A stretch of 63,880 nt of DNA, filler included, from a bacterium (GTDB lineage Bacteria; UBA9089; CG2-30-40-21; SBAY01): NCBI GenBank assembly GCA_040757115.1. It is 5 parts of 5 records of this genome, joined end to end, with 100 filler letters (N's around TTAATTAATTAA, not from the genome) between each part and the next. Parts side by side here need not be neighbours in the genome. Positions count along the whole stretch, not along the records: positions 1 to 13,361 come from JBFLYA010000107.1; positions 13,462 to 26,821 come from JBFLYA010000108.1; positions 26,922 to 39,773 come from JBFLYA010000109.1; positions 39,874 to 52,609 come from JBFLYA010000110.1; positions 52,710 to 63,880 come from JBFLYA010000123.1. One strand, given 5' to 3'. The translations under genes and the position numbers were made by a program. The notes beneath the pieces are model-generated. The model was not told the DNA's origin, ran no database searches, and saw only the letters and a program-made list of their open reading frames with translations. Below, piece after piece: positions 12,833-61,510 of this stretch (the stretch's first letter is position 1; each line of letters opens with the position of its first letter).

Positions 12833-13238
12833 GTAACTATTCAGCCATTGATTGACACGGATTAGCACAGATAAATAGCAGAAGGCAGAGAGCAGAAGGC
12901 AGAGGACAGAAGACAGAGGTCAGAGGCGGGTTGTCCCCCGCTGGCGGGGGTTAGGGGGTGGTTGTCCCCCGCTGGCGGGGGATTAAGGGGGTGGAAATCT
13001 CTTCCACTGGCAGAGAATCAAGAAGGATAGAAAATAAAAGTTAGAAGGAGAAACGCTCATGAACCGTTGGTTCACAAATGAAGATGAAAATAGGTTTGAT
13101 GGTTCAGGTGAAATCAGGCTGAAGCCTGCGGCTGCCAGCCTTCCCGAGTCCCGAACCCCGAGTCCCGAGTCCCGATTTTCAGAAGAACCCTTCAACCTGA
13201 TTACGGACACGGAAAACGGACACGATTTACGAATTTTC
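12833..13238. mobile_element. Composite family B element with nested CCCCCGCTGGCGGGGG palindromes and a junction-bounded payload
   Basis: GTAACTATTCAG at 12833; B sequence resumes ~13188; interrupted at 13239 by family A. Confidence 0.75.
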
Positions 13239-13361
13239 GTAACCGTTCAGGCTATATATCAAAAGTGTAAGAAAGGGGATAAGGAGATAAGAGTGATATG
13301 GAGATAAGATAATAGAAATAGATTGAAATTTATAGAAATAGGTAGAAATTGATTGTGGAAA
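13239..13361 (+). mobile_element. Family A element (partial, contig end)
   Basis: Matches the first 123 nt of 41237-41474. Confidence 0.9.
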
Positions 13362-13461
13362 NNNNNNNNNNNNNNNNNNNNNNNNNNNNNNNNNNNNNNN
13401 NNNNNTTAATTAATTAANNNNNNNNNNNNNNNNNNNNNNNNNNNNNNNNNNNNNNNNNNNN
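13362..13461. other. Artificial contig linker (N44-TTAATTAATTAA-N44); also 26822-26921, 39774-39873, 52610-52709
   Basis: Identical all-frame stop linker in four gaps. Confidence 0.95.
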
Positions 13462-13784
13462 TGTCCACAACTTACCCACAATTGCTTGGATAACTCCTTT
13501 GGAGTTACCCACACTCTCCACATCACTACCAGTACTAATAATTAATTTTTTAATTTTATTTTCAACCCCCAACCCCCAATCTTGGGGGCTTTAATAAGGA
13601 ATTAGGATTGTGGCATTCAAAATGACCAACAATATATATTATACGAGGACGATGAAAATGTAGTTTTATGATTCGATGGTTTTATAGTTTAAGAAGATAA
13701 GCATGGACGCAGGATACAAGTCTGGAGATACTATACTAATTCACTAATCTCTAATTCACTAATTCGCTATTTTCAGGAGAAGAA

Positions 13785-14480
13785 ATGCTGAAGGTAGAAA
13801 ATCTTGAGGTTTATTATCATCATATCCATGCCCTTGCAGGGATTTCATTCGAGGTAAATGAGGGAGAGATTGTTGCCCTCTTAGGGGCTAATGGTGCGGG
13901 TAAAACAACAACTCTTGCCGCTATCTCAGGATTGGTAAAGATATGTAATGGGGCAATTAGATTTTTAGACCAGGACATTACCCCTTTAAAACCACATCAG
14001 ATTGTTCAACTTGGAATTACACAGGTGCCTGAAGGAAGAGGGATATTTGAACCATTAACCGTGATGGAAAATCTCCAACTTGGGGGTTGGACAAAAAAGA
14101 ACTCAAAAAAACAAATAGCCTATGTTTTTGAGATATTTCCACTTCTTTATGAGCGTCGGGCACAAGTCGCCGGCACATTAAGTGGTGGGGAACAACAAAT
14201 GTTAGCCATTGGCAGGGCTTTGGTTAGCAATCCTAAACTTTTACTCTTAGATGAACCATCTTTAGGATTAGCCCCTAAACTTATCGAGAGGATATTTAAA
14301 ACAATTGCACGGATTAATCAAGAAGGAACATCTATTCTCCTTGTAGAACAAAATGCTTATATGTCACTTAATATTGCTCATCGCGGGTATATTTTTGAAA
14401 CAGGGAAAATAATATTGGCGGGGAAAAGTGATGAACTTGTCCAAAATGAATTAGTGAAAAAGGCCTATTTAGGTCATTAA
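13785..14480 (+). CDS. livF: Branched-chain amino-acid ABC ATPase
   Basis: GANGAGKTT, VPEGR.IF, LSGGEQQMLAIGRAL, LDEPSLGLAP, LLVEQN. Confidence 0.95.
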   Translation: MLKVENLEVYYHHIHALAGISFEVNEGEIVALLGANGAGKTTTLAAISGLVKICNGAIRFLDQDITPLKPHQIVQLGITQVPEGRGIFEPLTVMENLQLGGWTKKNSKKQIAYVFEIFPLLYERRAQVAGTLSGGEQQMLAIGRALVSNPKLLLLDEPSLGLAPKLIERIFKTIARINQEGTSILLVEQNAYMSLNIAHRGYIFETGKIILAGKSDELVQNELVKKAYLGH

Positions 14481-14785
14481 CTTAAGCCGATGCCTATCAT
14501 CCGTGCCATTCTCTCGGCAACCCCCTCTATTATCTCTTCTTTTGTGAGAGAATGACTATTCAGTCGTTCGATGACCTCTGAGATTTTTTCCTGACGAATA
14601 TCAGGGATGGCAACCATTATCTTTTTTGCTAATTCTTTTGCTTCAACCCTCTCCTGTTGAATTCCTCTTGCCTGAGAAGAAATAGATACTTTATCTGCAA
14701 GTGCCGGATCATTCTCTATTCCTTTGGGTTTGACCCCATTTACCTCAGTTACTTTTGGTGTTAATGTAATTGGATTTACTACCAT
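14477..14785 (-). CDS. flgM: FlgM-like anti-sigma-28 factor
   Basis: DKVSISSQA...PDIRQEKI.EV pattern; small size. Confidence 0.6.
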   Translation of the reverse strand: MVVNPITLTPKVTEVNGVKPKGIENDPALADKVSISSQARGIQQERVEAKELAKKIMVAIPDIRQEKISEVIERLNSHSLTKEEIIEGVAERMARMIGIGLS

Positions 14786-14864
14786 AATTTTATCTCCCCT
14801 CCTTTTTTAATCGACATTTATTTAAAAAAACTTTAGTAAAATTTAAAAAAAAATTAACTTTTCT

Positions 14865-15410
14865 GTAACTATTCAGCATACCAAGCAAGTAGGAAGTAGG
14901 AAGTAGGAAAGGGGGAAAATACTTCATACTATTTTACTCTTAATTGATTTGATTAAACCTATAAGCATCCTACTCACTTCTTCAGATATATCCCAAATGG
15001 ATTGAAAATCTGGCAGATAATTAAGATCTTTAGATAGAATTAGATAATACCTTTCCTACTCTCCTACTTCCTACTTTCAGGGAAATCTCCCCCATTTCAC
15101 TGACGCATTACCTTAGTTCTTCAAGAGAGCCCTGGCTTATATTATAGGCATTTAACTTATTCTTTATGCCTTGTTTCTTAAAACCTTCTGCAATATTTGC
15201 TGGAATAGAAACAGCCGCTTTGCACATCTGTTGCACCAATCCATATTTTTCTTCAGTGGGGAAGTTTTTGGTTATTTCGTATATTCTTATCACTAAATGA
15301 TGGCTTTTTTGCCATACTACAAGTTGTCTAAAATCATCTAACTTCTCATTCATTTTCTTCCCCTTTCCTACTTCCCTACTCTCCTACTTTCCTACAGGGT
15401 GAATAGTTAC
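14865..15410. mobile_element. GTAAC-TIR element carrying a four-helix-bundle gene between AAGTAGG/CCTACTT heptamer arms
   Basis: GTAACTATTCA...TGAATAGTTAC; perfect 8-bp TSD ACTTTTCT. Confidence 0.9.
14924..15353 (-). pseudogene. Four-helix-bundle protein (TIGR02436/23S-IVP/Avd-like) interrupted by a 61-bp insertion
   Basis: FRQLVVWQKS..L...IY.IT..FP.EEKYGL..QM..AAVSIPANIAEG; continues RYYLILSKDLNY...MLIGLIKS after removing an insert flanked by TACCT repeats (15048, 15109). Confidence 0.85.
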
Positions 15411-15506
15411 ACTTTTCTTACCATTTCAAATATATCATAGAATTATATAGATGTCAATTCTAAACATAGCCTGGATTATCCAATTAGCGTTACGCCAGTT
15501 GGATAA

Positions 15507-16640
15507 TTAACGCTTTGCTTGCTCTAATATCCAGCGTTTGAAAAAGATATCACAAATTATGTATTGGCCATTTTCCTTTTCTATTAGTTCTTTTTCCATT
15601 AGTCCCTTGAGTGCCTTTTGAACACTTGAAGGTGCTCCCAGATTATATCTTCTTAAGAAATCAGTTGAGAATACTTCTGCCTTTTCTTGTTGACTTAAAC
15701 CTGCCAGAACCTGTTTTTGTTTTAGAGTCAAGGTATCCCAAATAGTGGCAAAAAGGGTTGATTCTTTCTTAAGCAATCCCAAAAGAGCCAGAGCAACACT
15801 CTTTTCTTCTACTTTTACCTGGTCGCTATATTCATCCCATAAAATATGGCAGAGATATTGAGTATAATAAGGATGGCATTCAGAGATTTCTACAATTTTT
15901 TCTATGGTTTTGTCTTCTATCTGAATCTGGCTTCTTTTGAAGTGGTATTTAATAAACGAAATAAGATTACCTTTTTCTATTTTTCCCAATGGGAAGTGCT
16001 TGCCACTTTTATAAAAAGGCCTGTTGAGATTGTAAAACATATCAAACATTAGATGGTGTTTACTTCCCATAAAGATGTAACTTACATTTCGATGAGATTG
16101 AAATACAGAGCGCATCTTTTTCTCTATTTCATCATCCCCATAATTAGCAATCTCTTGAAATTCATCAAAAACCACCACACCATTCATTCCTCTTCTATCC
16201 GCTTCTTTCTTAACCGCGGTGAGTAAATCATCTAATATTGGGCTAATATTGGTAGTTTTATCATATTCAAATTCAACCTCTGGCAGATTATCAGGTCGAA
16301 TTACTATCTTAGGAAGCAAACGGGGTAATAGTTCTTTTATCCTTTCCATAACTACTTCAATTTTACCCTTAATACTCTGACTTAAAGCTCGAGCATAAAC
16401 TTCTATAAACTTTTCTTTTGTGATAGCCGGATACAAATCAATATAGGCAATGAGAAAAGGTCTATTCTGAAGATTTCTAATCACTTCCTTAATAAGAGAA
16501 GTTTTTCCATATCGTCTGGGAGAGAAAATAATTATATTTTCTCCATTTTCGATATCTTTTACCAGTTCAGCGATTTCATCTTTTCGGTTACAAAAGGCGT
16601 TTCCAGAAACCTCTTCTCCATAAATAAAAGGATTCTTCAT
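15507..16640 (-). CDS. P-loop ATPase (ATPase_2/archaeal-ATPase type) with C-terminal wHTH
   Basis: MKNPF.YG, F.NR..E, SPRRYGKTS, VVFDEFQ; start moved to MKNPF. Confidence 0.85.
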   Translation of the reverse strand: MKNPFIYGEEVSGNAFCNRKDEIAELVKDIENGENIIIFSPRRYGKTSLIKEVIRNLQNRPFLIAYIDLYPAITKEKFIEVYARALSQSIKGKIEVVMERIKELLPRLLPKIVIRPDNLPEVEFEYDKTTNISPILDDLLTAVKKEADRRGMNGVVVFDEFQEIANYGDDEIEKKMRSVFQSHRNVSYIFMGSKHHLMFDMFYNLNRPFYKSGKHFPLGKIEKGNLISFIKYHFKRSQIQIEDKTIEKIVEISECHPYYTQYLCHILWDEYSDQVKVEEKSVALALLGLLKKESTLFATIWDTLTLKQKQVLAGLSQQEKAEVFSTDFLRRYNLGAPSSVQKALKGLMEKELIEKENGQYIICDIFFKRWILEQAKR

Positions 16641-16944
16641 CTGTTTTACTGCTACGGATACGAATTTGCTTTCTGAGCGTTTTGTGTATTTATTCATTTT
16701 TGCATCTTCTGATGACATTTTAGCAGAAATTTTGTCCTATGTCAACAAAAACTTTCAACCTGTATGGTTAGAAATTAGGAGATAATATTTTGGGGACGCT
16801 GTCCCCAATCCCCCCGTAGGCGTTAACTTAAGAGACAAAATATAACATGGAATATTCTGGCATACCTTTTAAATCCTTGTTAAGGTAGTAGAGCGTAGGA
16901 GAGCAAATATCTTCTATCAGTTTGTAATTCTGTGATAGAACTGT

Positions 16945-17122
16945 GTAATGTCAGTCGTCAGTGGCGTGGGGGGATTAACCTGACTTTTAGAAGAAATCAC
17001 GGAAACACAGAAATGATGAAACACGGAAAATTGATTTTTACTCTGTGTTTCTGTCCTTCCGTGTTTCTGTGGTAACAACTCTCATTTTCAAGAGAACGCC
17101 CCCCATTTCACTGACCCATTAC
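16945..17122. mobile_element. Palindromic element with GTAATG..TCAGT ends and CACGGAAACAC arms
   Basis: Right end CCCCCATTTCACTGACCCATTAC matches the insert in the four-helix-bundle gene (~15089-15111). Confidence 0.55.
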
Positions 17123-17281
17123 AACTATACTTCATTTCCTCATAAATTATACTTAATTAGGCAGAGATCTGAAAACAGAAGATAGACTTCTATCTTCTGA
17201 CCTCTGTTCTCTGTCTATAGTTATAAACTAAAGGAATCACCAGGAACTTTTAAGAAATCACAATAATTGTTAAAATTTTTC

Positions 17282-17310
17282 TTGACGAATAACAATAAAT
17301 CTTGTATACT
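17282..17310 (+). promoter_or_regulatory. Sigma70-type promoter
   Basis: TTGACG-17 bp-TATACT. Confidence 0.65.
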
Positions 17311-17342
17311 TAAAATAATAAATTTAAAGGAGGTTGTTTAGA

Positions 17343-19796: not shown

Positions 19797-20062
19797 GAAT
19801 AAGTTATGGCGAAACGCAGAAATAAAGGGACTCGGGACTCGGGACTCGGGACTCGGGAATAAAAGAATCCCCTAACCCCGAAATCCAAATCCCGAACCCC
19901 GATTTTCAGGGGAGAAGGCTCATGAACCGTGGATTCACAACAGGAGAATGAAAATAGGGAAAAAAACAGGTGGAGGAAAGATTTTCTCTCTACTATCTAC
20001 TTTCTACTCTCTACTTCCTATTTTTAGGAGAAATAAGTCATTTAACTATTTTCTTGAAAAAT

Positions 20063-23421: not shown

Positions 23422-23822
23422 TAAGGTTCTGCAAAATAGGATTTGGGGGAGACAACAAATAAATATCAAATATCAAATATTAAATATCAAATATAAATAT
23501 CAAAATGCAAAATTACAAATCAAATTCCAAAAAGGACTTCAAGTATTTTAATGCTGAAATGTAGTAGATAGTAGATAGTTTATAGTAGATAGTTTATAGT
23601 AGATAGTTTATAGTAGATAGTTTATAGTAGATAGTTTATAGTTGAAGGACTATAAACCATAAACTATAAACCATAAACTATAAACTATACACTATAAACT
23701 ATACACTATAAACCCTAAACTATAAACGAGTTTTGCATTTTGCTCTTTGGAGGAAATTGATAAAAATAAAGGCTTTAAATACCCGCTTAAAAACTACAGT
23801 TTCCTGGTTTTGCAGAACTCTA
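23422..23822. mobile_element. Family E miniature element with nested GATAGTTTATAGTA/CTATAAA hairpin
   Basis: TIR TAAGGTTCTGCAAAA...TTTTGCAGAACTCTA; 12-bp TSD ATTGGGAGATAA duplicating the ugd 3' end. Confidence 0.88.
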
Positions 23823-26683: not shown

Positions 26684-27067
26684 TTGCGGTTCAACAGCAA
26701 TTCTCGGTGAAAATAAGAAATGGGTATTTATGAGGGTTTTTCGGGATTATGAAATATATTTTTCGTAAAGATTTTTGTTTTTTGAAAAAAAGATATAGAC
26801 TTTTTATCTTAAATGTGGTATNNNNNNNNNNNNNNNNNNNNNNNNNNNNNNNNNNNNNNNNNNNNTTAATTAATTAANNNNNNNNNNNNNNNNNNNNNNN
26901 NNNNNNNNNNNNNNNNNNNNNTTTAACAAAATATCTGGAATAGTAACTATCATCATATCTATTTCTCCTCCCTTTTATAATTAATATCGGGAGGAAATAG
27001 ATAATACTTAATACTTTAATTGTCAATTTGTTATAAAAAAACGCAAAAGTTTAGATAGTAAATTTGG

Positions 27068-27577
27068 GTAACTGTTCAGCCACAGAGGCACAGAGTTCAC
27101 AGAGAATTAGAGAAATTAGCCATAAATGGACACGAATTAACCTCTGACATTCGATAAATGTAATGCGAACCTTTGTATGTGTTTAGCGTATTTATGCATT
27201 GGATACAAACCTGAAAGGTTTGAATTTTACATAACCGTAGGTAAAACCTACGGAAATGGACATTTACGATGTCTCTCAACCCTGAAAGGGTTGAATTTTA
27301 AACGAGGGATAAAATTCGACCCTTTCAGGGTCTCAGAGTGCATGTATGTGTTTCTTCCGTAGATTGCATCTACGGTTATGTGAAGTTTGACGCTTTCAGC
27401 GTCGGAAAAAAATATCGTCACGCTAAACACATACGAACCTTTAGGTTTGCTTTCCTGCTTGCCAGAAGCGAGGCTAAAGTCTCGCACTACAAATCTTTTT
27501 ATTATTCGTGTTCATTCGTGGTTATATATTCCCTCTGTGTTCTCTGTGACTCTGTGGTTATATCCCGGAACGGTTAC
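27068..27577. mobile_element. Family D element containing a nested element
   Basis: TIRs; TSD AAATTTGG; equals 33684-33923 plus an insert. Confidence 0.9.
27175..27434. mobile_element. Nested GTATGTGTTTAGCGT-TIR element with REP-like GAAA hairpins
   Basis: 15-bp perfect TIR; TSD GAACCTTT; ACCCTGAAAGGGT and CCGTAGG...CCTACGG stems. Confidence 0.88.
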
Positions 27578-27596
27578 AAATTTGGAGAATAAAAAA

Positions 27597-28796
27597 ATGG
27601 GTAATGAAGAGATAGAAAAACACCTGGAATTAGGTGAAGATTCTAAGTGGGAGTTTAAGTCAGAAATTTCACATCCCGATGACCTATCTTCTGAAATTGT
27701 CGCTATGGCAAACTCTGAAGGCGGAACTATCCTACTTGGTGTCTCTGATAAGGGAGAACCAACTGGTAACCTTGATGATAAGGAAACAATGAATACAGTG
27801 GTTGTCTCAATAGAAAATATCTCTCGGAATAATATAGAACCCGCTTTATTTCTTACCTGGGAAAAGATAAAGATAAATGGTCACACAATCCTGGCGATTA
27901 AAATTCCCAAAGGTCCAGATAGACCATACCGCACCAACAAAGGAGTCTATTATCTCCGTGTGGGGACAAGCAAAAAGATTATTAGTCGGGGAGAGTTAGC
28001 AAAGCTCTTTCAATCTACCGGCTTATTTTATCCTGATGAATCCCCGGTTTTAAATACGGACATCGCTGATATTGATAGTGATTATCTGAACAAAGCCTGG
28101 CCCGAATTAGTAAGCATACCTTTATCTAAAGCCAGACTCAAAGACTGTGGGATAATAAGCACTGATGAATCTGCTTTGACAATTGGTGGGCTTATCTGCT
28201 ATGGCAAAGAACCACAAAAAAGGCTACCTTATGCCAGGATTACTGCCATCAGATTCCCGGAAGGAGATATTGAAGGTGGACATAGGTATCTTGAGAGGTT
28301 AGAGATTGAAGGCAGGATTGAAGACCAGGCAAAGGAAGCAACTATGTTTTTGACTCGTCATCTTGGAATAGTAGAAGAAATTTTGACATTTGCTTCGGAA
28401 ACTCAAACCAGCCCTCCCAAACTCTTATTATCAGCCATTCAGGAAGGAATAATCAATGCCCTGGTTCACCGCGATTACACCCTTCCTTCCCAAATTAGAC
28501 TCTTTGTCTTTGATGACAGGATAGAAATATTAAGTCCTGGCAGGTTGTTGAATACGGTAAATCTTTCAGAACTGAAACTTGGCTGTCATGCGGTTAGAAA
28601 CCGTATCATCTTTGCCCATTGTCTGAGGCTGAAATTGGTTTATAATGTGGGATTGGGTATTCCAACAATGTTCAGGCTAACACTCAGGGCAGGTCTTCCT
28701 GAACCAGAAATAAGTCTTGTCGGCTCAGAATTTAGACTTGTCTTCAGGAGAAACGCTCATGTCCACAGCGCGGACACAAACGACGATGAAAATTAA
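27597..28796 (+). CDS. AlbA_2 (Schlafen-like) + HATPase_c_4 ('RecG C-terminal') protein
   Basis: GED...EFK, IVAMANSEGGTILLGVSD, YYLRVG, EGIINALVHRDY, DDRIEILSPG; 3' end runs into the junction repeat. Confidence 0.88.
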   Translation: MGNEEIEKHLELGEDSKWEFKSEISHPDDLSSEIVAMANSEGGTILLGVSDKGEPTGNLDDKETMNTVVVSIENISRNNIEPALFLTWEKIKINGHTILAIKIPKGPDRPYRTNKGVYYLRVGTSKKIISRGELAKLFQSTGLFYPDESPVLNTDIADIDSDYLNKAWPELVSIPLSKARLKDCGIISTDESALTIGGLICYGKEPQKRLPYARITAIRFPEGDIEGGHRYLERLEIEGRIEDQAKEATMFLTRHLGIVEEILTFASETQTSPPKLLLSAIQEGIINALVHRDYTLPSQIRLFVFDDRIEILSPGRLLNTVNLSELKLGCHAVRNRIIFAHCLRLKLVYNVGLGIPTMFRLTLRAGLPEPEISLVGSEFRLVFRRNAHVHSADTNDDEN

Positions 28797-28842
28797 TGGG
28801 ACGCAGATTTACAGGATTTACAAGATTTTAAAGAAAAGCCAC

Positions 28843-28990
28843 TAATGCTCTGTCGCCATTCAAGTGATTGATTGGCCGTTGTCCCCCGCTGGCGGGGGTA
28901 GGGGGTGGATTCTTCTATTTCAGATTTCATATTCCACCCCCTTAATCCCCCGCCAGCGGGGAACATCAATTGAGTAGCGACAGAGCACTA
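28843..28990. mobile_element. TAATGCTCTGTCGC-ended element enclosing CCCCCGCTGGCGGGGG palindromes
   Basis: TGCTCTGTCGC...GCGACAGAGCA inverted repeat nested in a GGACGCAGAT/ATCTGCGTCC hairpin. Confidence 0.65.
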
Positions 28991-29189
28991 AGGCACTATA
29001 AAAACATCAAGAAACTTTAAGGAAATAACTATAGAAATACAATAATAAAAAATTAATTTTAATCCTGTTCATCTGCGAAAATCTGCGTCCAATTTTACAT
29101 TTTCAGGGGAAACGGGCATGACCTGCGGCTACCAGCCTTTCCGAGTCCCGAACCCCGAGTCCCGAGTCCCGATTTTCAGGAGAACAATA

Positions 29190-32100
29190 ATGGAATGGTA
29201 TGAAAGATTAGATGGATGGAATAAGATAAATGAAGGCGACCTGGTAACCATTGCCTTATTTAAGTTTGATATGGCAAAATCTACCCAGCTTGGAAAACAA
29301 CTTGGTGCAGAAGAAAACAGAGATTGCCTTAAGAAATATCACGACCTGGTAGAATATATTCTAACCGGGTTTAATATCGCTCCCCAGCCATTTGAATTTC
29401 AAAAGGATGGGGCAACGGTCTATTTCCTTGGGGAAAATGCCGTCTCTGAGGCAGTTCGTGCCGGGAAAAAACTTCTTTCTGAGATAAGAAGGACTCTGGA
29501 ATACGAGGTTCACATCAGAATTGGCATTGGTGTTGACGATGTGTATTTCAAGAAAAGACTGGGAGAGATTTCATCACATCAGTTTGACCTTGGAGGACAT
29601 TCAGAAAAGGTTTGCCCCATCGATTCCCTTGTCTTAACCGAGGAGGCATATTTAGACCTTGATAGATTAGATAAAGGATTGGCAAGTGAGTTTGGCTTTC
29701 TTGGAACTACACTTGAGGATAAGTCACCTTTATTTGTCTATCCCAAAACTCGCCAGATAAACAAACCAGCTGAATTTTTTAAGCCAGAGGATGACCCATA
29801 CTGCATTAAGGCACGGCTTATCAATTACTATAATACCCCATCATTTTGTCAATTTAGATTTGTGGGCATCCGTCAATTTGAAAAGGTAGGGTTAGCCCTG
29901 GAGATTCGTAAGGCTTATGTCCTTCTTAAAGCCCGTGCCTGGAAGGAAAGGGAAGAGATAGATGAAAGTAGAAAGATGAAAGATGAAAGAGAAAGGGAAG
30001 AAAGGGAAAGAAGACCTTTTCTAAGCGAAAAGACCTATCGCGAGACACCTATTCCCCTTGACGGACTTTTAAAGAAAGACAAAAATATTATTCTGCTTGG
30101 TGACCCCGGTTCTGGAAAGACAACCTTTCTTCGCTGGCTTAGCTTGATGTTTATAGATGGGGTAAGGAATATAAAAAGGCATCTGGGAATTGAGGAAAGC
30201 CTTATTCCCCTCTTTATCTCTGTAGGTAGATTCTTTAATTTGCGTTCAGAAAATCCAAACCTTGGATTACTTAATCTCCTTTCCCTCTATTTTTGTCCCT
30301 ATGGCTGTGAGGGATTGGAAAAGATGCTTGAACCTCGATTAAATGATGGGCAGGTTATCTTTCTCTTTGATGGTCTGGATGAGCTCCCATCTGCCAATGA
30401 AAGAGAGATAGCAAGAAATCTGGTTGAACTCTATACCAGCCAATATTCAAAGAATAGATTCATCATCACCAGTAGAATTGTTGGCTATCCCGGGCTTTCT
30501 ATCCCTAATTCCAGAGAGTATTGTCTGGAAGGACTTGATGAAGATGAGGCAACAAAATTGGCTTTTGCCTTTTACTTTAGTTTAGCCATTAAGGATGAAG
30601 AAAAAAAACCCCGGGCAAAGGAACTGGCAGAAGAGAAAAGCCATATCCTTATCTCATCATTAAAGGAGCGGGAAAACCTCCTTGCCTTTCTCCAGAACCC
30701 ACTCTTACTTACCCTGTCTGCCATCTGCCACACAAATCTTGGCAAACTTCCCAAATATAGGGTTCGGCTATATGAGGTCGCCACCCAGACATTGGTTGAT
30801 GCCTGGGCAAATGCAAGAAGACCTGAGAGTATAACAGAAAGAGAACACATTGACTATGAGGCAGAAGGACTGCGTGTCTTACCAGCCATTGCTCTCTGGA
30901 TGCATCAGGAAAAACCAGCGGGATTGGTCAGAGAGGATGAACTTATAGAAAAGATTAAAGCCCTGCTTGGAAAAGGGGAATTTGATGCCAAAGAATTTAT
31001 GAGGAGACTTGAAGCCGCAGGAAGCCTTTTAATAAATAGAGGAGAAAACCAATATGGCTTTATCCACCAAACATTCCAGGAGTATTTAGTGGCAAAACAA
31101 ATGGTAAAATCAGTAAAAGATTCCTGGGAAGATTACATCTCTGAATTTCTTTACAACCCCCGCTATGAAGAAATATGGAGACTAATTGCAGGTGAGATTG
31201 GCATAATTGAAGGAAGCGGTGAGAAGGCAAGCCTTTATATAAAAAAGATTTACGAAGATACTGATGACATTAATGCACAAATCCTTAAGAAGAACCTTTT
31301 GCTCTCTGCCAAAGCCCTTTCAGATACCGTCTCTTATGATGAGGAGCTGAATAATGGGATTGTATCTGACCTCTTTAATGCCTGCATTAAGGATGAACCA
31401 CCACCACCCAGAGAACAACTCTTCCTTGCCATCCGACAATTAAAAGGAAGGGAAGAAGGTGAAAGGCTTTGTGGCCTTCTGGTAGATAGACTGAAGGATT
31501 TTGATAGGGATGTTCGTTCTGCCGCAGCAGAGGCAATAGGGAATCTGGGGGATAAAAGTGCCCTCCCACAACTTATTCCTTTGTTGAGTGATGCTGTTGG
31601 GTATGTTCGTTCTGCCTCAGCAGAGGCAATAGGGATGTTGGGGGATAAAAGTGCCCTCCCACAACTTATTCCTTTGTTGAGTGATGCTAATTGGTTTGTT
31701 CGTTCTGCCGCAGTAGAGGCGATAGGGAAGTTGGGGGATAAAAGTGCCCTCCCACAACTTATTCCTTTGTTGAGTGATGCTGAGTGGGATGTTGTTCGTT
31801 CTGCCGCAGCCGAGGCAATAGGGAAGTTGGGGGATAAAAGTGTCCTCCCAAAACTTATTCCTTTGTTGAATGATGCTGATGGGTATGTTTGTTCTGCCGC
31901 AGCAAGGGCAATAGGGGAGTTGGGTGATAAAAGTGTCCTCCCAAAACTTATTCTTTTGTTGAAAGATGCTAAGTGGGATGTTCGTTCTGCCGCAGCAAGG
32001 GCAATAGGGAATGTGCGGGATAAAAGTGTCCTCCCACAACTTATTCCTTTGTTGAGTGATGCTGATGGGTATGTTCGTTCTGCCGCAGCAAGGGCAATAG

Positions 32101-32492
32101 GGAAGTTAGGTGATAAAAGTGCCCTCCCACAACTTATTCCTTTGTTGAGTGATGATGAGTGGTATGTTCGTTCTGCCGCAGCAGAGGCAATAGGGAAGTT
32201 AGGGGATAAAAGTGCCCTCCCACAACTTATTCCTTTGTTGAGTGATGCTGATGGGTATGTTTGTTCTGCCGCAGCAAGGGCAATAGGGGAGTTGGGTGAT
32301 AAAAGTGTCCTCCCAAAACTTATTCTTTTGTTGAAAGATGCTAAGTGGGATGTTCGTTCTGCCGCAGCAAGGGCAATAGGGAAGTTGGGTGATAAAAGTG
32401 CCCTCCCACAACTTATTCCTTTGTTGAATGATGCTAAGTGGGATGTTCGTTCTGCCGCAGCAGAGGCAATCTGGAATCTCTCGCTGGTCTAA
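29190..32492 (+). CDS. NLR-like STAND protein: class III nucleotide-cyclase-like domain + NACHT NTPase + HEAT repeats
   Basis: VTIALFKFDMAKST, KDGATVYF, IRIGIG; GDPGSGKTT, FLFDGLDE, IITSR, NPLLLT, FIHQTFQEYL; 10.5 HEAT repeats; AGGAG RBS before MEWYE. Confidence 0.88.
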   Translation: MEWYERLDGWNKINEGDLVTIALFKFDMAKSTQLGKQLGAEENRDCLKKYHDLVEYILTGFNIAPQPFEFQKDGATVYFLGENAVSEAVRAGKKLLSEIRRTLEYEVHIRIGIGVDDVYFKKRLGEISSHQFDLGGHSEKVCPIDSLVLTEEAYLDLDRLDKGLASEFGFLGTTLEDKSPLFVYPKTRQINKPAEFFKPEDDPYCIKARLINYYNTPSFCQFRFVGIRQFEKVGLALEIRKAYVLLKARAWKEREEIDESRKMKDEREREERERRPFLSEKTYRETPIPLDGLLKKDKNIILLGDPGSGKTTFLRWLSLMFIDGVRNIKRHLGIEESLIPLFISVGRFFNLRSENPNLGLLNLLSLYFCPYGCEGLEKMLEPRLNDGQVIFLFDGLDELPSANEREIARNLVELYTSQYSKNRFIITSRIVGYPGLSIPNSREYCLEGLDEDEATKLAFAFYFSLAIKDEEKKPRAKELAEEKSHILISSLKERENLLAFLQNPLLLTLSAICHTNLGKLPKYRVRLYEVATQTLVDAWANARRPESITEREHIDYEAEGLRVLPAIALWMHQEKPAGLVREDELIEKIKALLGKGEFDAKEFMRRLEAAGSLLINRGENQYGFIHQTFQEYLVAKQMVKSVKDSWEDYISEFLYNPRYEEIWRLIAGEIGIIEGSGEKASLYIKKIYEDTDDINAQILKKNLLLSAKALSDTVSYDEELNNGIVSDLFNACIKDEPPPPREQLFLAIRQLKGREEGERLCGLLVDRLKDFDRDVRSAAAEAIGNLGDKSALPQLIPLLSDAVGYVRSASAEAIGMLGDKSALPQLIPLLSDANWFVRSAAVEAIGKLGDKSALPQLIPLLSDAEWDVVRSAAAEAIGKLGDKSVLPKLIPLLNDADGYVCSAAARAIGELGDKSVLPKLILLLKDAKWDVRSAAARAIGNVRDKSVLPQLIPLLSDADGYVRSAAARAIGKLGDKSALPQLIPLLSDDEWYVRSAAAEAIGKLGDKSALPQLIPLLSDADGYVCSAAARAIGELGDKSVLPKLILLLKDAKWDVRSAAARAIGKLGDKSALPQLIPLLNDAKWDVRSAAAEAIWNLSLV
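31503..32480 (+). repeat. Coding tandem array of ~10.5 near-identical 93-bp HEAT units
   Basis: GTTCGTTCTGCCGCAGCA...GATAAAAGTGCCCTCCCACAACTTATTCCTTTGTTG repeated with 93-bp period (one 96-bp unit). Confidence 0.95.
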
Positions 32493-39608: not shown

Positions 39609-39881
39609 ATATACATCCTGATAATCTACGAAAATCTGCGTCCCATAACCTATTTTCAGGAGAAACGGACATGAGCCAAGGCTCACAAAGGGCAATGAAA
39701 ATGGGAGAAGGACAACCCCCTAACCCCCTTTATTAAGGGGGAATTGCTGAGAGTTTCTTTCTTCCCGAGTCCCNNNNNNNNNNNNNNNNNNNNNNNNNNN
39801 NNNNNNNNNNNNNNNNNTTAATTAATTAANNNNNNNNNNNNNNNNNNNNNNNNNNNNNNNNNNNNNNNNNNNNAAATTCTA

Positions 39882-52296: not shown

Positions 52297-52479
52297 GTTT
52301 CAATCCTTGTTTTAATGGAAGTTGGGTTGTTACGATGGAAACGAGATTACGAGGAAACCCCAGCAGCTCCGTTTCAATCCTTGTTTTAATGGAAGTTGGT
52401 CGCTAACTTATCATCGCAATGCTGTATTTCTGGTATATTCTTGTTTCAATCCTTGTTTTAATGGAAGTTGGTCGCTAAC
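52297..52479 (-). CRISPR. Orphan mini CRISPR array: 3 x 37-bp repeats, 2 spacers (37 and 35 bp)
   Basis: Repeat (minus) GTTAGCGACCAACTTCCATTAAAACAAGGATTGAAAC with canonical ATTGAAAC end; degenerate copy at 52297; no cas genes in window. Confidence 0.88.
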
Positions 52480-52749
52480 GGCTATTTGCTACATAGCATA
52501 ACATCGTGCACCCTATTTTAATACAAATTTATAGCAGGACATCGTGCACTCTCACCCCATGGGGTGAGCGAAATTCTAATCCTCAAAAATAGCAGGACAT
52601 CGTGCACCTNNNNNNNNNNNNNNNNNNNNNNNNNNNNNNNNNNNNNNNNNNNNTTAATTAATTAANNNNNNNNNNNNNNNNNNNNNNNNNNNNNNNNNNN
52701 NNNNNNNNNCAGTTTAATGGCACTTCAGTAACAAAAATTCAAATATAAC

Positions 52750-56754: not shown

Positions 56755-57771
56755 ATGAAAAAGAACACAATAAATATCTTAACAGCGTTGATAGTAAGTC
56801 TGTTTTTAATTGGATTAACTATCACACCGTCAAATGCCACAGGGTGGCCAGATTTGAAAATAGCAAAGGTGAAAAGACCAGAAGGCGTAAATCAACCACT
56901 TCCACCACTGCCACCAGTGCCAACAAAGGTAGTGATGAGTGACCCAGATGGCGATTCACAATTAAGCGATATCTACGAGTGGGAAGTCATTCCGGGTATT
57001 GGAGTCCCCACTGTAGATGTTGTTCAACTTGAGGCAGGGATAGGAATAAGTATGGGAAGTCCGGCGGTAACACTTCGACTCACATTTAACCAATGGACAG
57101 ATATATCCACAGTCATTGGATATATTGACCTTGATACAGACCAGGACCGGTACACAGGATGGGGTCCGTGGAAATATCCTGAAATTGGAGGAGGGTTTGA
57201 ATATGCTCTAGACTTCTTTTCCCTTCCTACTGTTTCAATTTACGATATAAATTGGAACTTGATGGGAGAACTAACCGCGGTTCTGGGAACAGATACCATT
57301 GAAATTACTATTCCATTAGGGATGCTTGGTAATGATGATGGGGTAATGGATTTAGAAATGATAGTGGGAAACTGGGATGCTCCAACAGATCTGGCGCCAC
57401 CCTCAGATGCCTATAGCGCTCACTCAATACCAACAAACCCTGTGGTCAGAATGTTTAGTAACGATGAGGTGTATACAACTGGCGAGACACTGAATGCCGA
57501 GGTTAAGGTAGTTAATGACGGAGCTACAATGACGGTTGATGTCCACATTTATGCCCAGGGATTCCATCCCTCTCCACTATGGGGACAGGTTCCACTAGTT
57601 CTCATGGATGATGTAGTTATTCCTGCAGGATTTAATCTGACCGTGCCGGTGATAAGTTACCCCATTACACCTGCTTCACCACAAGGTATTACAAAATTAG
57701 GAGCAAGAATCTGTGACCCAACCACAGGTGATATTTTGAGTGATGGTTCTAAGTTAATCATTATCGAGTAG
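56755..57771 (+). CDS. Secreted hypothetical beta-rich protein
   Basis: GGAGG RBS, signal peptide, Pro-rich linker, IDLDTDQD..TG and E..IPL..LG motifs. Confidence 0.75.
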   Translation: MKKNTINILTALIVSLFLIGLTITPSNATGWPDLKIAKVKRPEGVNQPLPPLPPVPTKVVMSDPDGDSQLSDIYEWEVIPGIGVPTVDVVQLEAGIGISMGSPAVTLRLTFNQWTDISTVIGYIDLDTDQDRYTGWGPWKYPEIGGGFEYALDFFSLPTVSIYDINWNLMGELTAVLGTDTIEITIPLGMLGNDDGVMDLEMIVGNWDAPTDLAPPSDAYSAHSIPTNPVVRMFSNDEVYTTGETLNAEVKVVNDGATMTVDVHIYAQGFHPSPLWGQVPLVLMDDVVIPAGFNLTVPVISYPITPASPQGITKLGARICDPTTGDILSDGSKLIIIE

Positions 57772-57790
57772 ATGACGAATTCTCTCTCGT

Positions 57791-57824
57791 CTGTTCAATG
57801 GTCATTGAAATGACCATTGAACAG
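57791..57824. terminator. Perfect hairpin between convergent genes
   Basis: CTGTTCAATGGTCAT-TGAA-ATGACCATTGAACAG. Confidence 0.6.
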
Positions 57825-57829
57825 CGGGA

Positions 57830-60283
57830 TTAAAAATTCCCTTTAACTAACCCCTTAAATATCCCAAATTCTAATTGATATACCTTCAATAATTCCTCAT
57901 CAGGAATAATACTGTCAGATATACCCATTTTTGCGTCAGTAAATCTATCTGCAAAGGATAAAACCAGTAAAGTTCCAGTTCCTACTTTAACGCTCACACC
58001 AATTGTCTGATTCTCCGGGGTAAAGAAAATAGGATTGCCACCTTCAATAATGGCTGAATTTACCTCTGATGGATAATACTTATTAAATGGTTGGGCATAG
58101 AGATGGGATGAGTAGATGGATTGATTAATCTTTACGCCAAAGGCAGATAGAAGTGAATTAGCGGTAGAACTACCGTTAGACAGACTATCCAGGAGCAATA
58201 TTTTTCCACCAGAATGGAGATAATCTTTAATCCAGGATATATCCTTTGATGTAAACTTCTTTTTAGGTTTGATGATGACTACGACTTCAGGTTTTTCCTT
58301 TTTAATATCTTCGCAGACTATTGGAAAATACCCCAGTCGTAATACCCATTGATAAAACATCTCAAAACTACACTCGTTATCCTGGACAAACCCTTTGATT
58401 GGGAGATTAAGGTCAGAATGTTTTGACTCAAAACAAATCTGAATTGGCTTAGTGTGAGGTTTTGGCAATGGATAATTTAATTTATTCACGAAGGTAAAAC
58501 CGACCATCCCTAAAGCCGTCATAAAGATTATCAGAGGCAAAGATTGAATATTGAATTTAGAAATAAATAGCCCAACGACGAATAATCCTATTCCTAAAAT
58601 CAAGAATAAGTAGTTTAACCGGCTCAGAAAATTTTCTCTATTTAACCAATTTAGTGTGCCTAAGAGTAATTCAGGTTTGCCTGGAATAAATGCCGAGAAG
58701 TTAGAGAAGCAGGTTGAATCTGTAAACCCCACCACCCGACCCTTGCCATATTTTACCCCAATTGTTTGAATAAAAGTCCCAAAATCCATCTTCGTGCTAT
58801 CTATAACCTGGGGATAAAAATTACTGCTTGAATAATCAATATCTAACGACTTTAAGCCAGAAGATAAAATGACATTTTCCCATAAATAATCTTTTGGCTC
58901 AACAGAACTGGAAGTGGCAAAGAGAAAACAAGGCATATTTTGAACGATAGGATGTGGTAGAAGTTTTGGAGGATAATATACTTGCTCGAATTTTTTCTCA
59001 ATATCAAATAGGCAATCATACCGAAAATAAAAACCAAATCTTTTTGCTATTGGATTAAGATAACAAGAAGAGCCAAAGACATTGGTATGTTCCCCTAATA
59101 AAAATAACCCACCACCAGCCTTAACAAATTCTACAATTGCCTCTATCTCCTTATCTAAAAACCTGGATGTAGGAATCTTCAAAACCAGAATATCATAATT
59201 ACTTAATAATTTAGATGTTATTGAACCCAAATTGCGGTCCACTTTATAATAATAACTCAAATAGTCTGTCATACAGTAATAATTATAACCTGATTCCTGT
59301 CCATACCAGGTTGTATCGTATTTTCTGGTGGTTTTTTCCCAATCGCTATGTGCCTCATCTATGAGAATTCTTCCTTGTCCGGGGATACCAGGGTCATGAA
59401 ATCCAAAATAACCAATGATAAATAACACCCCCAGACTGATTAAAACTAACCCTTTTATTTTTAAGGGGTTAAATGGTGGAGGTGTTATTTTAAGCTTAAA
59501 AAACCGACATAATAAAAATAGATAAGGAATAAAACTAAGTGTAATGATTGTTGGATTCCAGAAGAGAAAAACCTTATCTGCTTCCTCTTCATCAGGCACA
59601 AAATACTCCAGATAAAGAAATATTAATATCATTAAGATATACCTGAATATGAGGTAAAGCACGGTGGTGATGGTAAAAAGTCCGGTGGTTATCCACAATC
59701 TTCTGGAGGTAGAAAAGAGCCGAAGTAATATTATCCCTCCAATTAAAAGATTTAAGGCAGGAAAAACGCCCAATTTATCCCAGGTGGTAGGGAATTCATA
59801 GAGTTTCCGCATTGTCTCAATAAAGATAGTATCTTGACTTAAACTCACCGGCAGGGTTAAAAATTTTAGTATCTGGTAAATTACAGGGGTGAAGGCAGGA
59901 CATTGTTGCCATTTAGCCGTAAAACACATATAAGGATGCCCAATAACACTCTGGACACTCAAAAATCCCCCCACTAACCATAAACTACAAACTAATGGCG
60001 CCAATCTGCGAAAAGGAAGTAGTAAGAAACTTAAACCTAAAACTGCTGGACCTAAATTATAAGGGAAAGGCAATATAAGATAAGCAATTAATAATGGCAG
60101 GCAAAAAAAAGGGTAGCGTTTATCAATATTCTCAAGTTTTACCTGTCGCAAACCAAATAAAAGAAAAATAATGGCTAATCCAATTAAAATAAAAGTCCCA
60201 AAATAATTAGTTTTAATATAAAGGGATGAAGAGAAAAGCCAGGTTGTTGAAATTAAAATCATGCAAAACCAGATACCAAACAT
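57830..60283 (-). CDS. Polytopic membrane protein with DUF4350/GATase-like extracytoplasmic domains
   Basis: Many TM segments; ILIDEAH, L..YDILV, FVKAGGGLFLLGEH, G.GRVV...DS. Confidence 0.7.
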   Translation of the reverse strand: MFGIWFCMILISTTWLFSSSLYIKTNYFGTFILIGLAIIFLLFGLRQVKLENIDKRYPFFCLPLLIAYLILPFPYNLGPAVLGLSFLLLPFRRLAPLVCSLWLVGGFLSVQSVIGHPYMCFTAKWQQCPAFTPVIYQILKFLTLPVSLSQDTIFIETMRKLYEFPTTWDKLGVFPALNLLIGGIILLRLFSTSRRLWITTGLFTITTVLYLIFRYILMILIFLYLEYFVPDEEEADKVFLFWNPTIITLSFIPYLFLLCRFFKLKITPPPFNPLKIKGLVLISLGVLFIIGYFGFHDPGIPGQGRILIDEAHSDWEKTTRKYDTTWYGQESGYNYYCMTDYLSYYYKVDRNLGSITSKLLSNYDILVLKIPTSRFLDKEIEAIVEFVKAGGGLFLLGEHTNVFGSSCYLNPIAKRFGFYFRYDCLFDIEKKFEQVYYPPKLLPHPIVQNMPCFLFATSSSVEPKDYLWENVILSSGLKSLDIDYSSSNFYPQVIDSTKMDFGTFIQTIGVKYGKGRVVGFTDSTCFSNFSAFIPGKPELLLGTLNWLNRENFLSRLNYLFLILGIGLFVVGLFISKFNIQSLPLIIFMTALGMVGFTFVNKLNYPLPKPHTKPIQICFESKHSDLNLPIKGFVQDNECSFEMFYQWVLRLGYFPIVCEDIKKEKPEVVVIIKPKKKFTSKDISWIKDYLHSGGKILLLDSLSNGSSTANSLLSAFGVKINQSIYSSHLYAQPFNKYYPSEVNSAIIEGGNPIFFTPENQTIGVSVKVGTGTLLVLSFADRFTDAKMGISDSIIPDEELLKVYQLEFGIFKGLVKGNF

Positions 60284-60306
60284 CTTTTTACCTCCACTGA
60301 ACTGCT

Positions 60307-60512
60307 GTAACTATTCACCGCAGAGACGCGGAGACACAGAGAAAAAATTAAAATCTATTGGCTATACGCTTAATTCCATTTCTAATAGACCTGGACCTAA
60401 TGTCTTATGTATTTCAATTGCTGTACCAATAATTTTTTCTGTTATCTGATTTATTTCCATGTTTTCTCTGTTCCTCTGCGTCTCTGCGGTGAATTACTAT
60501 CTGAACGGTTAC
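60307..60512 (-). mobile_element. Family C element with internally deleted GxxExxY gene
   Basis: Minus strand [27 protein letters not shown] fused to [10 protein letters not shown]; TIRs; no TSD. Confidence 0.88.
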
Positions 60513-60530
60513 AATTTGAAAATGCTCTTA

Positions 60531-61301
60531 TCATACCATTACTTCTCCAGCGGTAATTATTTCTGTCTCTCCATTTTCTAATTCCACTAAAAGTCTTCCT
60601 TGTCCATCAATTGACACCGCAGAGCCTTCTATTGATTTATCTGGTAATTGAACCGTTATGTGTCTGCCCACGATTGAGGATAACTGGTTGATTTCATTTA
60701 AAAAAGGAGCGAGATTTTGCACCTTCTTGAATTTAAGATAATCTTTTTCCATACCTTCCAATATCTTTGCTAAAATTTCTATTATCGGAATTTCTTTTCC
60801 CAATGCATCTTTGAGTGATGTTGCCTTTGATGGAAGTGTTTGAGAATCCACATTGACATTAATCCCTACCCCGATAATAATATATCTAACCGCAACTTCA
60901 ACCGTTGAGCTTTCTGTCAATATTCCACCTACTTTTTTATTATTGAGATACAGGTCATTAGGCCATTTGATAAGGATATTCAGGTTAGTCATTTCTTTGA
61001 TTGCCCGGGCAATACTCAAGGCAACTAAAATCGTCAATCCAGAGGCTTGATTTATGTTCATTAAGGTTGGTGTGAGGACCAAAGAAAACCACAAACCTCC
61101 TTTTGGGGATATCCATGTTTTTGATGGTTGTCCTTTGCCTTCAGTCTGGATTTCGGCAATAACTAAAGTTCCTTCAGGTGCACCAAAAGCGGCTAATGAA
61201 TGAGCAATATCCTGAGTTGAACCCACCTCGTCAAATGTATGTATCTGCCGACCGAAAATTTTACTCACAAGATTTTCTTTAATCTCTTGTGCCTGCCACA
61301 T
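60531..61301 (-). CDS. birA: Biotin-protein ligase (no N-terminal HTH)
   Basis: STQ, AE.QT.G.G, W.SP.GGL, IKWPNDL, KVGGILTE, GVGINV; start moved to MWQAQ. Confidence 0.9.
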   Translation of the reverse strand: MWQAQEIKENLVSKIFGRQIHTFDEVGSTQDIAHSLAAFGAPEGTLVIAEIQTEGKGQPSKTWISPKGGLWFSLVLTPTLMNINQASGLTILVALSIARAIKEMTNLNILIKWPNDLYLNNKKVGGILTESSTVEVAVRYIIIGVGINVNVDSQTLPSKATSLKDALGKEIPIIEILAKILEGMEKDYLKFKKVQNLAPFLNEINQLSSIVGRHITVQLPDKSIEGSAVSIDGQGRLLVELENGETEIITAGEVMV

Positions 61302-61510
61302 AAGTTTTCGCTCCTTTTCCCCTGAAAATAGGAAGTAGAAAGTAGAGAGTAGAAAGTAGAAAGTAAAGGAAACATCACTCCTCACGCCCATCTCCTTACC
61401 TCCCACCTTCTATCTCCTACCTACTATTTTCATCCTCATTTGTGAACCCACGGTTCATGAGCGTTTCCCCTGAAAATACATTCGCAGATTTCGCAGATTA
61501 CACAGATTTT

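Follow-up and report, generated by a model that had tools for sequence, protein, structure and literature searches.

A covarying hairpin motif heads small non-coding repeat units stacked before genes in the genome of an uncultivated bacterium

In attC arrays and in the Neisseria NIME (dRS3 plus RS), arrays of one orientation are made up of variable segments in alternation with a short site whose ends are inverted. The motif of about 52 bases considered here, which we call J, had been put close to such sites: on its first description from the sequence of the window (by which we mean the whole stretch of 63,880 nucleotides analysed, from the bacterial assembly GCA_040757115.1), it was suspected of being an attC-like or circle-junction-like recombination site of a cassette-assembly system, or else a structured RNA element. 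Several other described repeats invite comparison. REP/BIME are short extragenic hairpin units of high copy number, arranged in clustered mosaics without terminal inverted repeats and associated with recombination and mRNA stability, while BOX of Streptococcus pneumoniae forms modular arrays of tandem subunits that are transcribed and have a predicted RNA structure (both as outlined in the relevant part of PMC3184786). The same part of that source describes mycobacterial MIRU as units of 40-100 bp lying within operons in gene orientation, with small open reading frames (ORFs) that overlap the ends of neighbouring genes, and REP2 of Neisseria and IR-A/IR-B of Borrelia plasmids as elements directly 5' of genes, to which they bring a ribosome-binding site (RBS) and an ATG, with two internal stem-loops (PMC3184786). 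In the IS200/IS605 family, as presented in part of PMC3597680, single-stranded DNA is inserted 3' of a specific tetra- or pentanucleotide and subterminal hairpins are recognized. Set against these systems, J looks less like a site that separates cassettes than like the conserved 5' module with which each small non-coding repeat unit opens, and on balance we incline to regard the units as non-autonomous, orientation-locked mobile mosaic repeats of the REP/BIME, BOX, MIRU or REP2 kind.

The window (37% G+C) is joined by N44-TTAATTAATTAA-N44 linkers at 13362-13461, 26822-26921, 39774-39873 and 52610-52709, so that gene neighbourhood across these points is not real, downstream of the J copies at 13047 and 39652 near contig ends included; a single run of 100 N stands at 3885-3984. 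Its contigs terminate in repeats, and its DNA occurs in sequencing runs labelled groundwater metagenome. Genome-wide counts were taken from the nearest genome, G001, which has 34% of sampled 31-mers in common with the window and shared genes that are 97-98% identical. Copies were searched with R1, a covariance model built from 31 J copies of the window and G001, and ORFs of at least 100 aa (G001) or at least 80 aa (metagenome loci) stood as proxies for genes in all statements on context.

As read in G001, a unit is laid out as GRGAAACGnnCATG, a hairpin closed by TG...CA and CAAAnGAnGATGAAAAT, followed by a 3' module and then by ATTTTCAG. J, the leading part, comprises a box resembling a Shine-Dalgarno (SD) sequence, an ATG at constant spacing (SD-N8-ATG), a covarying hairpin of 5-7 bp and CACAAA-GGAGG-ATGAAAAT; its SD is often GGGG or GGAA. 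The 3' module is exchangeable and usually consists of a long hairpin with heptamer runs, and the unit closes with the core ATTTTCAGGAGAA. The 3' modules fall into a few families, namely GGAGAT/CTACTTT long hairpins, CCCCCTAACCCCC hairpins, GGGACGCAGAT hairpins and a GGTTTGATGG...CCCGAGT module, and several hairpin types coexist within one genome. Directly 3' of ATTTTCAG comes either the next unit or GAGAA plus a gene. J is not coding, since the hairpin insert varies from 9 to 15 nt among copies and shifts the frame of the conserved 3' part, which also leaves no conserved small ORF of the MIRU type. The mini-ORFs of translated copies (10-21 codons) are not conserved and change frame, and the ATG-to-ATG distances in 26 metagenome units fall 13, 11 and 2 into the three mod-3 classes.

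Units are numerous and stacked in one direction. G001 contains at least 150 R1 matches, the weakest among the matches listed scoring 52 bits, and 104 exact pattern matches against none for a reversed control. The 150 matches form 100 arrays (61 singles, 30 doubles, eight triples and one of five), and none of the 39 multi-unit arrays, with spacings of 90-399 nt, mixes strands. Read depth at repeat-bearing bins is 40-140 times the unique depth. Often, 13-30 nt separate the stop codon of the preceding gene from the start of the array, whose end supplies the SD of the gene that follows. For 51 arrays of G001, the downstream ORF was co-oriented in 33, opposite in six and not called in 12, and the upstream ORF co-oriented in 37, opposite in eight and not called in six; in 81 metagenome loci the downstream ORF was co-oriented in 50, opposite in 15 and not called in 16.

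In the window, R1 run with filters off returns exactly five full matches (52-74 bits, E <= 2e-10), and these, together with a half copy at 29100 (17.5 bits), are located where the original prediction had placed them; the next matches are noise (<=13.6 bits). A 23-nt J core allowed up to three mismatches is matched three times in the window and never in 100 shuffles. The units are the following.

13041-13091, plus strand: J copy 1, first of its array (R1 66.8 bits, E 5.9e-14); AGGAGAAACGCTCATG, hairpin TGAACC-GTT-GGTTCA, CACAAATGAAGATGAAAAT.
13092-13187, plus strand: 3' module of unit 1, with GGTTTGATGGTTCAGGTGAAATCAGG..., CCCGAGT heptamers and terminal core ATTTTCAGAAGAA; also 3' of J at four G001 loci (L002, L005, L006, L011).
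13735-13787, plus strand: tail of an array, its beginning lost to the scaffold gap, with CTAATTC heptamers and core ATTTTCAGGAGAA as SD of an ABC ATPase gene (ATG at 13785).
19903-19955, plus strand: J copy 2, diverged (R1 51.8 bits, E 1.9e-10); GGGGAGAAGG, hairpin TGAACC-GTG-GATTCA.
19956-20032, plus strand: 3' module of unit 2, with CTACTTT-type heptamers, ending ATTTTTAGGAGAA.
28741-28793, plus strand: J copy 3 (R1 63.8 bits), hairpin TGTCC-ACAGCGC-GGACA; overlaps the last ~18 codons and the stop of ORF 27387-28796 (Schlafen AlbA_2 / HATPase_c_4).
28794-29098, plus strand: 3' module of unit 3, a long GGGACGCAGAT...ATCTGCGTCC hairpin with a nested G-rich palindromic repeat, parts of which recur in G001.
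29099-29192, plus strand: short unit (the half copy, R1 17.5 bits), ATTTTCAGGGGAAACGGGCATGA fused directly to CCTGCGGCTACCAGCC and CCCGAGT heptamers, with terminal core ATTTTCAGGAGAA as SD of a NACHT-HEAT gene (ATG at 29190).
39653-39702, plus strand: J copy 4 (R1 66.9 bits), hairpin TGAGCC-AA-GGCTCA; directly 3' of larC and of larC's GGGACGCA...TGCGTCCC hairpin.
39703-39773, plus strand: 3' module of unit 4, a CCCCCTAACCCCC...GGGGG hairpin truncated by the contig end; the ~95-bp block of J plus module has at least 30 near-identical copies in G001.
61426-61477, minus strand: J copy 5 (R1 73.6 bits, E 1.5e-15), hairpin TGAACC-GTG-GGTTCA.
61300-61425, minus strand: 3' module of unit 5, a purine-/pyrimidine-rich long hairpin (GGAGAT.../CTACTTT...) with core ATTTTCAGGGGAAAAG.

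The claim that the end of the motif provides the SD of the following gene holds, by reading, at a livF-like gene (the ABC ATPase; ATTTTCAGGAGAAGAAATG at 13769-13787), at the NACHT-HEAT gene (ATTTTCAGGAGAACAATAATG at 29172-29192) and at birA (ATTTTCAGGGGAAAAGGAGCGAAAACTTATG at 61329-61300, minus strand), where core ATTTTCAGGGGAAAAG is followed by birA's own AAGGAG and ATG. Unit 2 ends ~50 nt 5' of the likely start of a HAD-hydrolase gene, and its end is therefore not the SD of that gene. Both neighbouring genes are co-oriented with the unit at 19903, 28741, 29099 and 61477. Two ORF calls are affected by the repeats, in that ORF 27387-28796 ends inside J and birA is called from a GTG within a repeat. 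A promoter scan of the window gave 67 sites against 55.3 expected, none of them tied to J units. On the opposite strand, the J hairpins at 13078-13056 and 28782-28754, followed by CGTTTCTCCT and TTTCTCCTGA respectively, look terminator-like in a simple scan, with a weak T-run.

Covariation of the inner stem, which had been noticed in a few copies, is upheld in larger alignments. In the 31 copies behind R1, 96.4% of cells are paired, three of the five pairs have changed on both sides (one is A-U, C-G or U-A, another C-G, G-C or A-U), and none of 500 shuffles reaches the covariation score. In 100 further copies from metagenomes and relatives (96 of them distinct), which lie outside the training set but in an alignment that was fitted to R1 and hence favours the structure, the stem is 89.1% paired against 64.2% after shuffling and at most 61% with a slid partner; four of five pairs have changed on both sides and again no shuffle in 500 reaches the score. 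The outer ends fared differently: ATTTTCA and TGAAAAT are indeed inverted in sequence, but as a helix they are only 76% paired without any compensating pair, the left side varying freely while the right is fixed, and ATTTTC is missing from the left side of the copy at 13047, which reads GTTAGAAGGAG. In the minimum-energy fold of the unit 5' of birA (-62.4 kcal/mol, z -4.08), TGAAAAT pairs instead with the next ATTTTCA downstream, closing a long payload hairpin and leaving the SD of the terminal core unpaired; the fold of the unit at 13047 does not stand out from those of shuffles (z -1.31). Mismatches in the stem are more often A.C than G.T, in 10 against four distinct hairpins of G001 and the window and in seven against three of the metagenomes, an excess that weakly favours the bottom strand as the one that folds. 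A candidate long-range helix, ATGAAACGAGCATG/CATGCGAGTTCCAT with tandem G.A pairs, was rejected, as variants lose it and RNAalifold does not return it.

A covarying hairpin next to SD and ATG raises the question of a role in RNA, namely that the unit is a cis-acting module, a portable leader, 5' untranslated or intercistronic, through which SD and start codon are presented or hidden or the mRNA is stabilized, and that it has spread because it is useful. Such a module would explain why orientation follows transcription (with co-orientation of the called downstream ORF in 33 of 39 and 50 of 65 cases) and the constant SD-N8-ATG spacing, and the stable fold before birA fits it. So does the one helix that RNAalifold finds in 25 metagenome units, CCATCCG/CGGATG, which pairs the downstream AUG and has compensating changes in three of six pairs. 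However, more than 100 copies precede unrelated genes, some lie within the ends of reading frames (28741 in the window; L255 and L257 elsewhere) and units are replaced between genomes that are 97-98% identical. Moreover, the SD of J is often GGGG or GGAA as noted, the SD of the terminal core is unpaired in the fold, A.C mismatches on the sense strand exceed G.U, and an asymmetric target would give the orientation lock just as well. As an account of the units in its own right we consider the RNA module unlikely, if far from idle; an RNA-level part in presenting SD and start or in mRNA stability is a live second reading as a secondary role, which is compatible with a mobile repeat.

How units behave can be seen from a comparison of the window with G001. 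Upstream of birA, between flanking genes that are 97-98% identical, the window has one unit and G001 six, including the one present in the window and the short 'half' form seen at 29099, and the borders of the units in this array fall exactly at ATTTTCAG|GRGAAAC. Downstream of larC, both genomes have the same sequence as far as ATTTTCAGGAGAAA, beyond which their units differ. A block of ~250 bp around 13047 is also found on contig C58 of G001 with another hairpin (GAACC/GGTTC against CCCAC/GTGGG) and other bases in the next few positions, although the wider flanks differ and the C58 block may therefore be a paralogous copy. Differences of this kind between genomes so nearly identical imply that unit content changes much faster than by point substitution. 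The gap between an epimerase and the HAD-hydrolase gene (19815-20032) holds only repeats in the window, and at C57:1435-3162 of G001 it has a coding insert of 1.7 kb with two ORFs.

The positions at which similarity breaks are in line with this. Across 56 array regions and 2108 high-scoring segment pairs, block starts accumulate 8-11 nt before CAG|G (273, 124, 119 and 77), and block ends at 0 and +1 after ATGAAAAT (276 and 120) and at +5 and +6 after CAG| (199 and 155). These accumulations identify J and the 3' modules as separate blocks that overlap in two cores, ATTTTCAG(GRGAA) and ATGAAAAT. The boundaries originally drawn for J are thus borne out by the breaks. Its alternation with variable payloads is likewise supported, and the conserved junction is the exact point at which units come, go or are replaced; what had been called a junction is itself a module.

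Does such turnover require any mobility at all? An old, immobile repeat might merely be reshuffled by homologous recombination, gene conversion and slippage between its many copies. The junctions share ~25 identical bases, enough for recombination; chimeras of the TGAACC...GGCTCA type and the hairpin swap at 13047 resemble conversion tracts, and the heptamer runs suggest slippage. Against a passive mosaic of this sort speak near-identical units at many unrelated loci of a more distant relative, G004 (see below), and at G001 loci with unique flanks, the strict orientation, and solo units that abut start codons with the native SD left behind. We therefore hold it to be distinctly improbable. Recent bursts are indicated by G004 and by one metagenome locus (L156), which has three identical tandem units of 134 nt.

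The family extends well beyond G001. The pattern GAAACG..CATG-N8-20-CACAAA.....ATGAAAAT was found on at least 120 metagenome contigs and is absent from 2.9 million viral contigs; it is likewise missing from 401 genomes drawn from across the phylum to which a Marinilabiliaceae metagenome-assembled genome belongs. Nine of 24 genomes of the phylum contain the exact pattern (G001 104, G004 45, G003 12, G005 three, G002 two and four genomes one each; reversed-pattern controls give zero). Of 30 relatives, 11 yield R1 matches, among them the family's whole set of five genomes and one member of another phylum. In G003, 35 R1 matches were counted. Outside G001 and G003, the 5' box is ATGAAAC, in place of AGGAGAAAC. 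Twenty-six short metagenome units (90-108 nt) span ATGAAACG to a second ATGAA(A/G), and at many metagenome loci this second ATG opens the downstream ORF, 43-55 nt past ATGAAAAT. The metagenome copies look derived from hosts without SD. A narrower pattern tried on genome contigs (AGGAG with a gap of 12-24 nt) returned 37 singletons that are ordinary gene starts, and was discarded.

The anatomy is clearest in G004, most of whose 45 exact matches have one identical J at loci with unrelated flanks. The order there is ATGAAAC, J, ATGAAAAT, a long hairpin, GGAG, ATTTTCAG and ATGAA(A/C). Nineteen of 20 loci examined begin with ATGAAAC, and nine units are complete, 190-202 nt long and ending ATTTTCAG-ATGAA(A/C). 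Whole units thus lie between two ATGAAA boxes, the second of which is often the start codon of a gene; in four of the nine, the ORF begun by the terminal ATG is either long or reaches the end of the locus, and the unit's 3' end carries GGAG-N8-ATGAAA. At three loci (L266, L265 and L261), the native SD remains at its normal distance 5' of the left ATGAAA. In two others, J lies inside a reading frame (L255 and L257), as at 28741 in the window. No terminal inverted repeat is present at the unit ends, and since the flanking boxes differ in some copies (ATGAAA against ATGAAC in L265 and ATGAAG in L130), they are not a 6-bp target duplication. A second 3' module, P2 (L252-L256, L258 and L259), reads by eye TTGCAG-N18-TATAAT, resembling a sigma-70 promoter, and ends AAGGAGG; it may be a portable promoter plus RBS. 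In this, it recalls Neisseria REP2 as portrayed in part of PMC3184786, a resemblance that also counts towards a role in RNA.

These features outline how the units might work as non-autonomous mobile or recombining DNA. They would enter, leave and swap at the two short cores, ATTTTCAG(GRGAA) and ATGAAAAT, whose counterparts in the family's older form would be the ATGAAA/TTTCAT boxes; always taking one orientation, the units would line up head to tail and read the same way as the flanking genes, and the SD at the 3' end of the unit would leave the downstream gene with a working translation start. A bolder version of this idea would make J units a novel class of mobile DNA, locked in orientation, that seeks out translation-initiation sites (the ATGAAA start box or, in this lineage, the SD core), is moved by an unrecognised or recruited HUH/integrase-type enzyme and brings a replacement RBS or start codon together with swappable 3' modules, some with promoters. 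We regard this version as unlikely; if it were true, there would be a genome-wide set of exchangeable 'expression cassettes' before genes, and J would be the recombination site suspected at the outset.

Which enzyme could act on the units? The original prediction had noted that no recombinase is present in the window, which is not strictly true: an ORF at 8311-9990 (plus strand, 559 aa) contains a DDE transposase domain (PF13610, 33.4 bits for a cut-off of 27). It has no link to J. One full relative, 63% identical, exists in G001, and the last ~30 codons (~90 bp) have ~29 short matches in G001 and ~20 in G003, many at contig ends; this dispersed end looks like a second repeat, derived from the end of an insertion sequence and unrelated to J.

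An integron integrase would be the natural partner if J were an attC-like folded site, with the payload as cassette and the integrase as builder of arrays. The inverted 7-nt ends around a covarying hairpin, the head-to-tail units and their exchange at a conserved core are all reminiscent of such a system, and TIGR02249 exceeds its curated cut-off in seven of 24 genomes of the phylum (G014, G008, G005, G009, G007, G004 and G017; L271-L286), with high-scoring fragments in G001 (215, 208 and 125 bits). Nevertheless, ten TIGR02249 loci (58 kb) contain no R1 match better than E 0.34, four of the genomes with an integrase over the cut-off have no J (G014, G009, G007 and G017), and G003, for all its R1 matches, has only a partial integrase match. 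Nor do the arrays look the part: they comprise one to six units, are dispersed over ~100 loci of G001 rather than assembled beside an intI gene with an attI site, and carry as payloads members of a few non-coding repeat families (60-300 nt) instead of the promoterless genes usual in cassettes, while J heads the unit where an attC site would close it. Finally, the outer helix of inverse cores is unsupported, as described above. The attC-like cassette-assembly system originally proposed is thus not supported, and we judge it highly improbable.

Mobilization as single-stranded DNA fits better. The units have neither inverted ends nor (in G004) a variable target duplication, as in non-autonomous relatives of IS200/IS605 (PATEs) moved by HUH enzymes; they have a fixed neighbouring box, always ATGAA(A) or core ATTTTCAGGRGAA, a strict orientation, hairpins beside the boxes and the weak excess of A.C mismatches. 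Classical MITEs are a poorer match, as no inverted repeat stands at the unit ends and the 7-nt inverted cores flank the modules rather than the unit. In J a single covarying hairpin is set between two boxes, and a further, long hairpin belongs to the 3' module; pairing between guide and cleavage site could not be demonstrated. Since neither a linked enzyme nor an empty site was recovered, it is from these traits that we infer that the units transpose and that an enzyme acts on them in trans, which would be of the single-strand, hairpin-recognizing type (HUH/Y1) rather than a DDE transposase or an integron integrase.

Several observations weigh against a mobile mosaic repeat of this kind. Y1/HUH transposase genes are at hand (nine matches in G001, and Y1_Tnp in 22 of 30 relatives), but Y1_Tnp does not track J among the 30 relatives, being present with or without it, and G003 combines its 35 R1 matches with mere Y1 fragments. 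None of six Y1 loci of G001 has J nearby, five of the six are flanked by other repeats, the Y1 genes inspected bring unrelated end hairpins of their own or REP-like flanks, and the ends of four IS200-like copies (L102 in G001; L239-L241 in G004) are unrelated to J. No empty site, among the loci compared, was found beside a filled site of a single unit, so that transposition is not directly shown, and unequal recombination at the ~25-nt shared junctions could account for one unit against six upstream of birA. In relatives, the covarying helix pairs the start codon, and the conserved SD-N8-ATG would be expected of a functional RNA leader. The A.C excess is small, and some of its cases may be chimeras between hairpin types. 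Lastly, the assemblies are fragmented and break at repeats, which makes the counts lower bounds and the gene context a matter of ORF proxies. On the other side stand the anatomy of the units, their copy number, their orientation, their turnover and the breakpoints, and a mobile mosaic repeat remains the reading to which we lean.

J units are not the only repeats in the window. A MITE-like repeat of ~245 bp with ends ACCGTTCAGG.../...CCTGAACG lies at 61532-61785 (and at 13239-13361, where the linker cuts it), and has more than 40 copies in G001, with 93-100% identity and often at contig ends. Tandem heptamer runs (AGAGGGC, GGGACTC, TAGTAGA, ACTATAA, CCTCTGC and others) occur in nearly every intergenic region, for example at 5840-5921, 19827-19858, 23562-23727 and 62757-62797; they resemble the short tandem repeats found in heterocystous cyanobacteria, and TRF lists 88 rows for the window. 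The NACHT-HEAT gene (a STAND NTPase; 29190-32492, plus strand) contains a 93-bp HEAT-repeat unit repeated 10.4 times in tandem (31502-32470), and the gene has no long match in G001. Two CRISPR repeats (RF01320, 40.8 bits each) lie at 52371-52479 on the minus strand beside a linker, where the neighbouring ORFs checked are nusA-/infB-like and not cas. They (as CRISPR-DR7) are the only Rfam result in the window at gathering scores; 18 metagenome loci gave no match, and under an E-value threshold nothing falls on J, which thus matches no Rfam family. TAACTGA repeats of the kind known from Beggiatoaceae, as described in part of PMC4679880, are absent from the window.

The wider significance lies in what such units do to a genome. 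At least 100 gene fronts of one 4.7-Mb genome are built from interchangeable repeat modules, which means that gene starts, SD sites and even gene ends are partly derived from repeats, and the contigs of these uncultivated bacteria break at J repeats on assembly. Between near-identical genomes, units turn over rapidly; across many metagenomes, compensating changes preserve the hairpin. Should a single-strand recombinase, or one of another type, prove to move the units, nature would have in them a compact means of setting sequences at translation starts; if they are only selfish DNA, they would be a clean and large example of mosaic repeats that colonize translation-initiation regions with the genes surviving.

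How, then, does J compare with the systems outlined at the beginning? With attC and NIME, it shares a short site with inverted ends alternating with variable segments in arrays of one orientation, but it differs in lacking a link to an integrase, in its dispersed arrays and in its non-coding payloads. With the PATEs of IS200/IS605, it shares a hairpin, the absence of terminal inverted repeats and of a variable target duplication, and apparently a fixed short neighbour in a single orientation, whereas PATEs have one hairpin per end and J one between two boxes, linker lengths differ, no complementarity of guide and cleavage site is shown for J, and the IS200-like ends sampled in G001 and G004 are unrelated to it. 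J units are modular, rich in hairpins and free of terminal inverted repeats, as are REP/BIME; they differ from these in being AT-richer, in their fixed boxes (ATTTTCAG / ATGAAAAT) and SD-ATG, in lying always in gene sense where REP clusters are reported to prefer sites between convergent genes, and in that the RAYT-like genes of G001 have repeats other than J on their flanks. Like BOX they form modular arrays, and like MIRU they lie inside operons in gene orientation, but there is no relation in sequence to either, the mini-ORFs of J are not conserved and its modules are exchanged at defined cores. Like REP2 and the Borrelia inverted repeats, they bring RBS and ATG; REP2, however, has ~26 copies and a promoter and is not arrayed according to part of PMC3184786, in contrast to more than 100 J units in tandem with promoter-like sites not beyond chance in the window. 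No published description of the J family was found in the literature searched (supplements and ISfinder-type libraries lying outside the comparison), and the family, which by sequence belongs to none of the repeat families compared, is apparently undescribed. What sets J apart is that it unites the traits spread among them with defined cores of exchange and a hairpin that covaries across many metagenomes.

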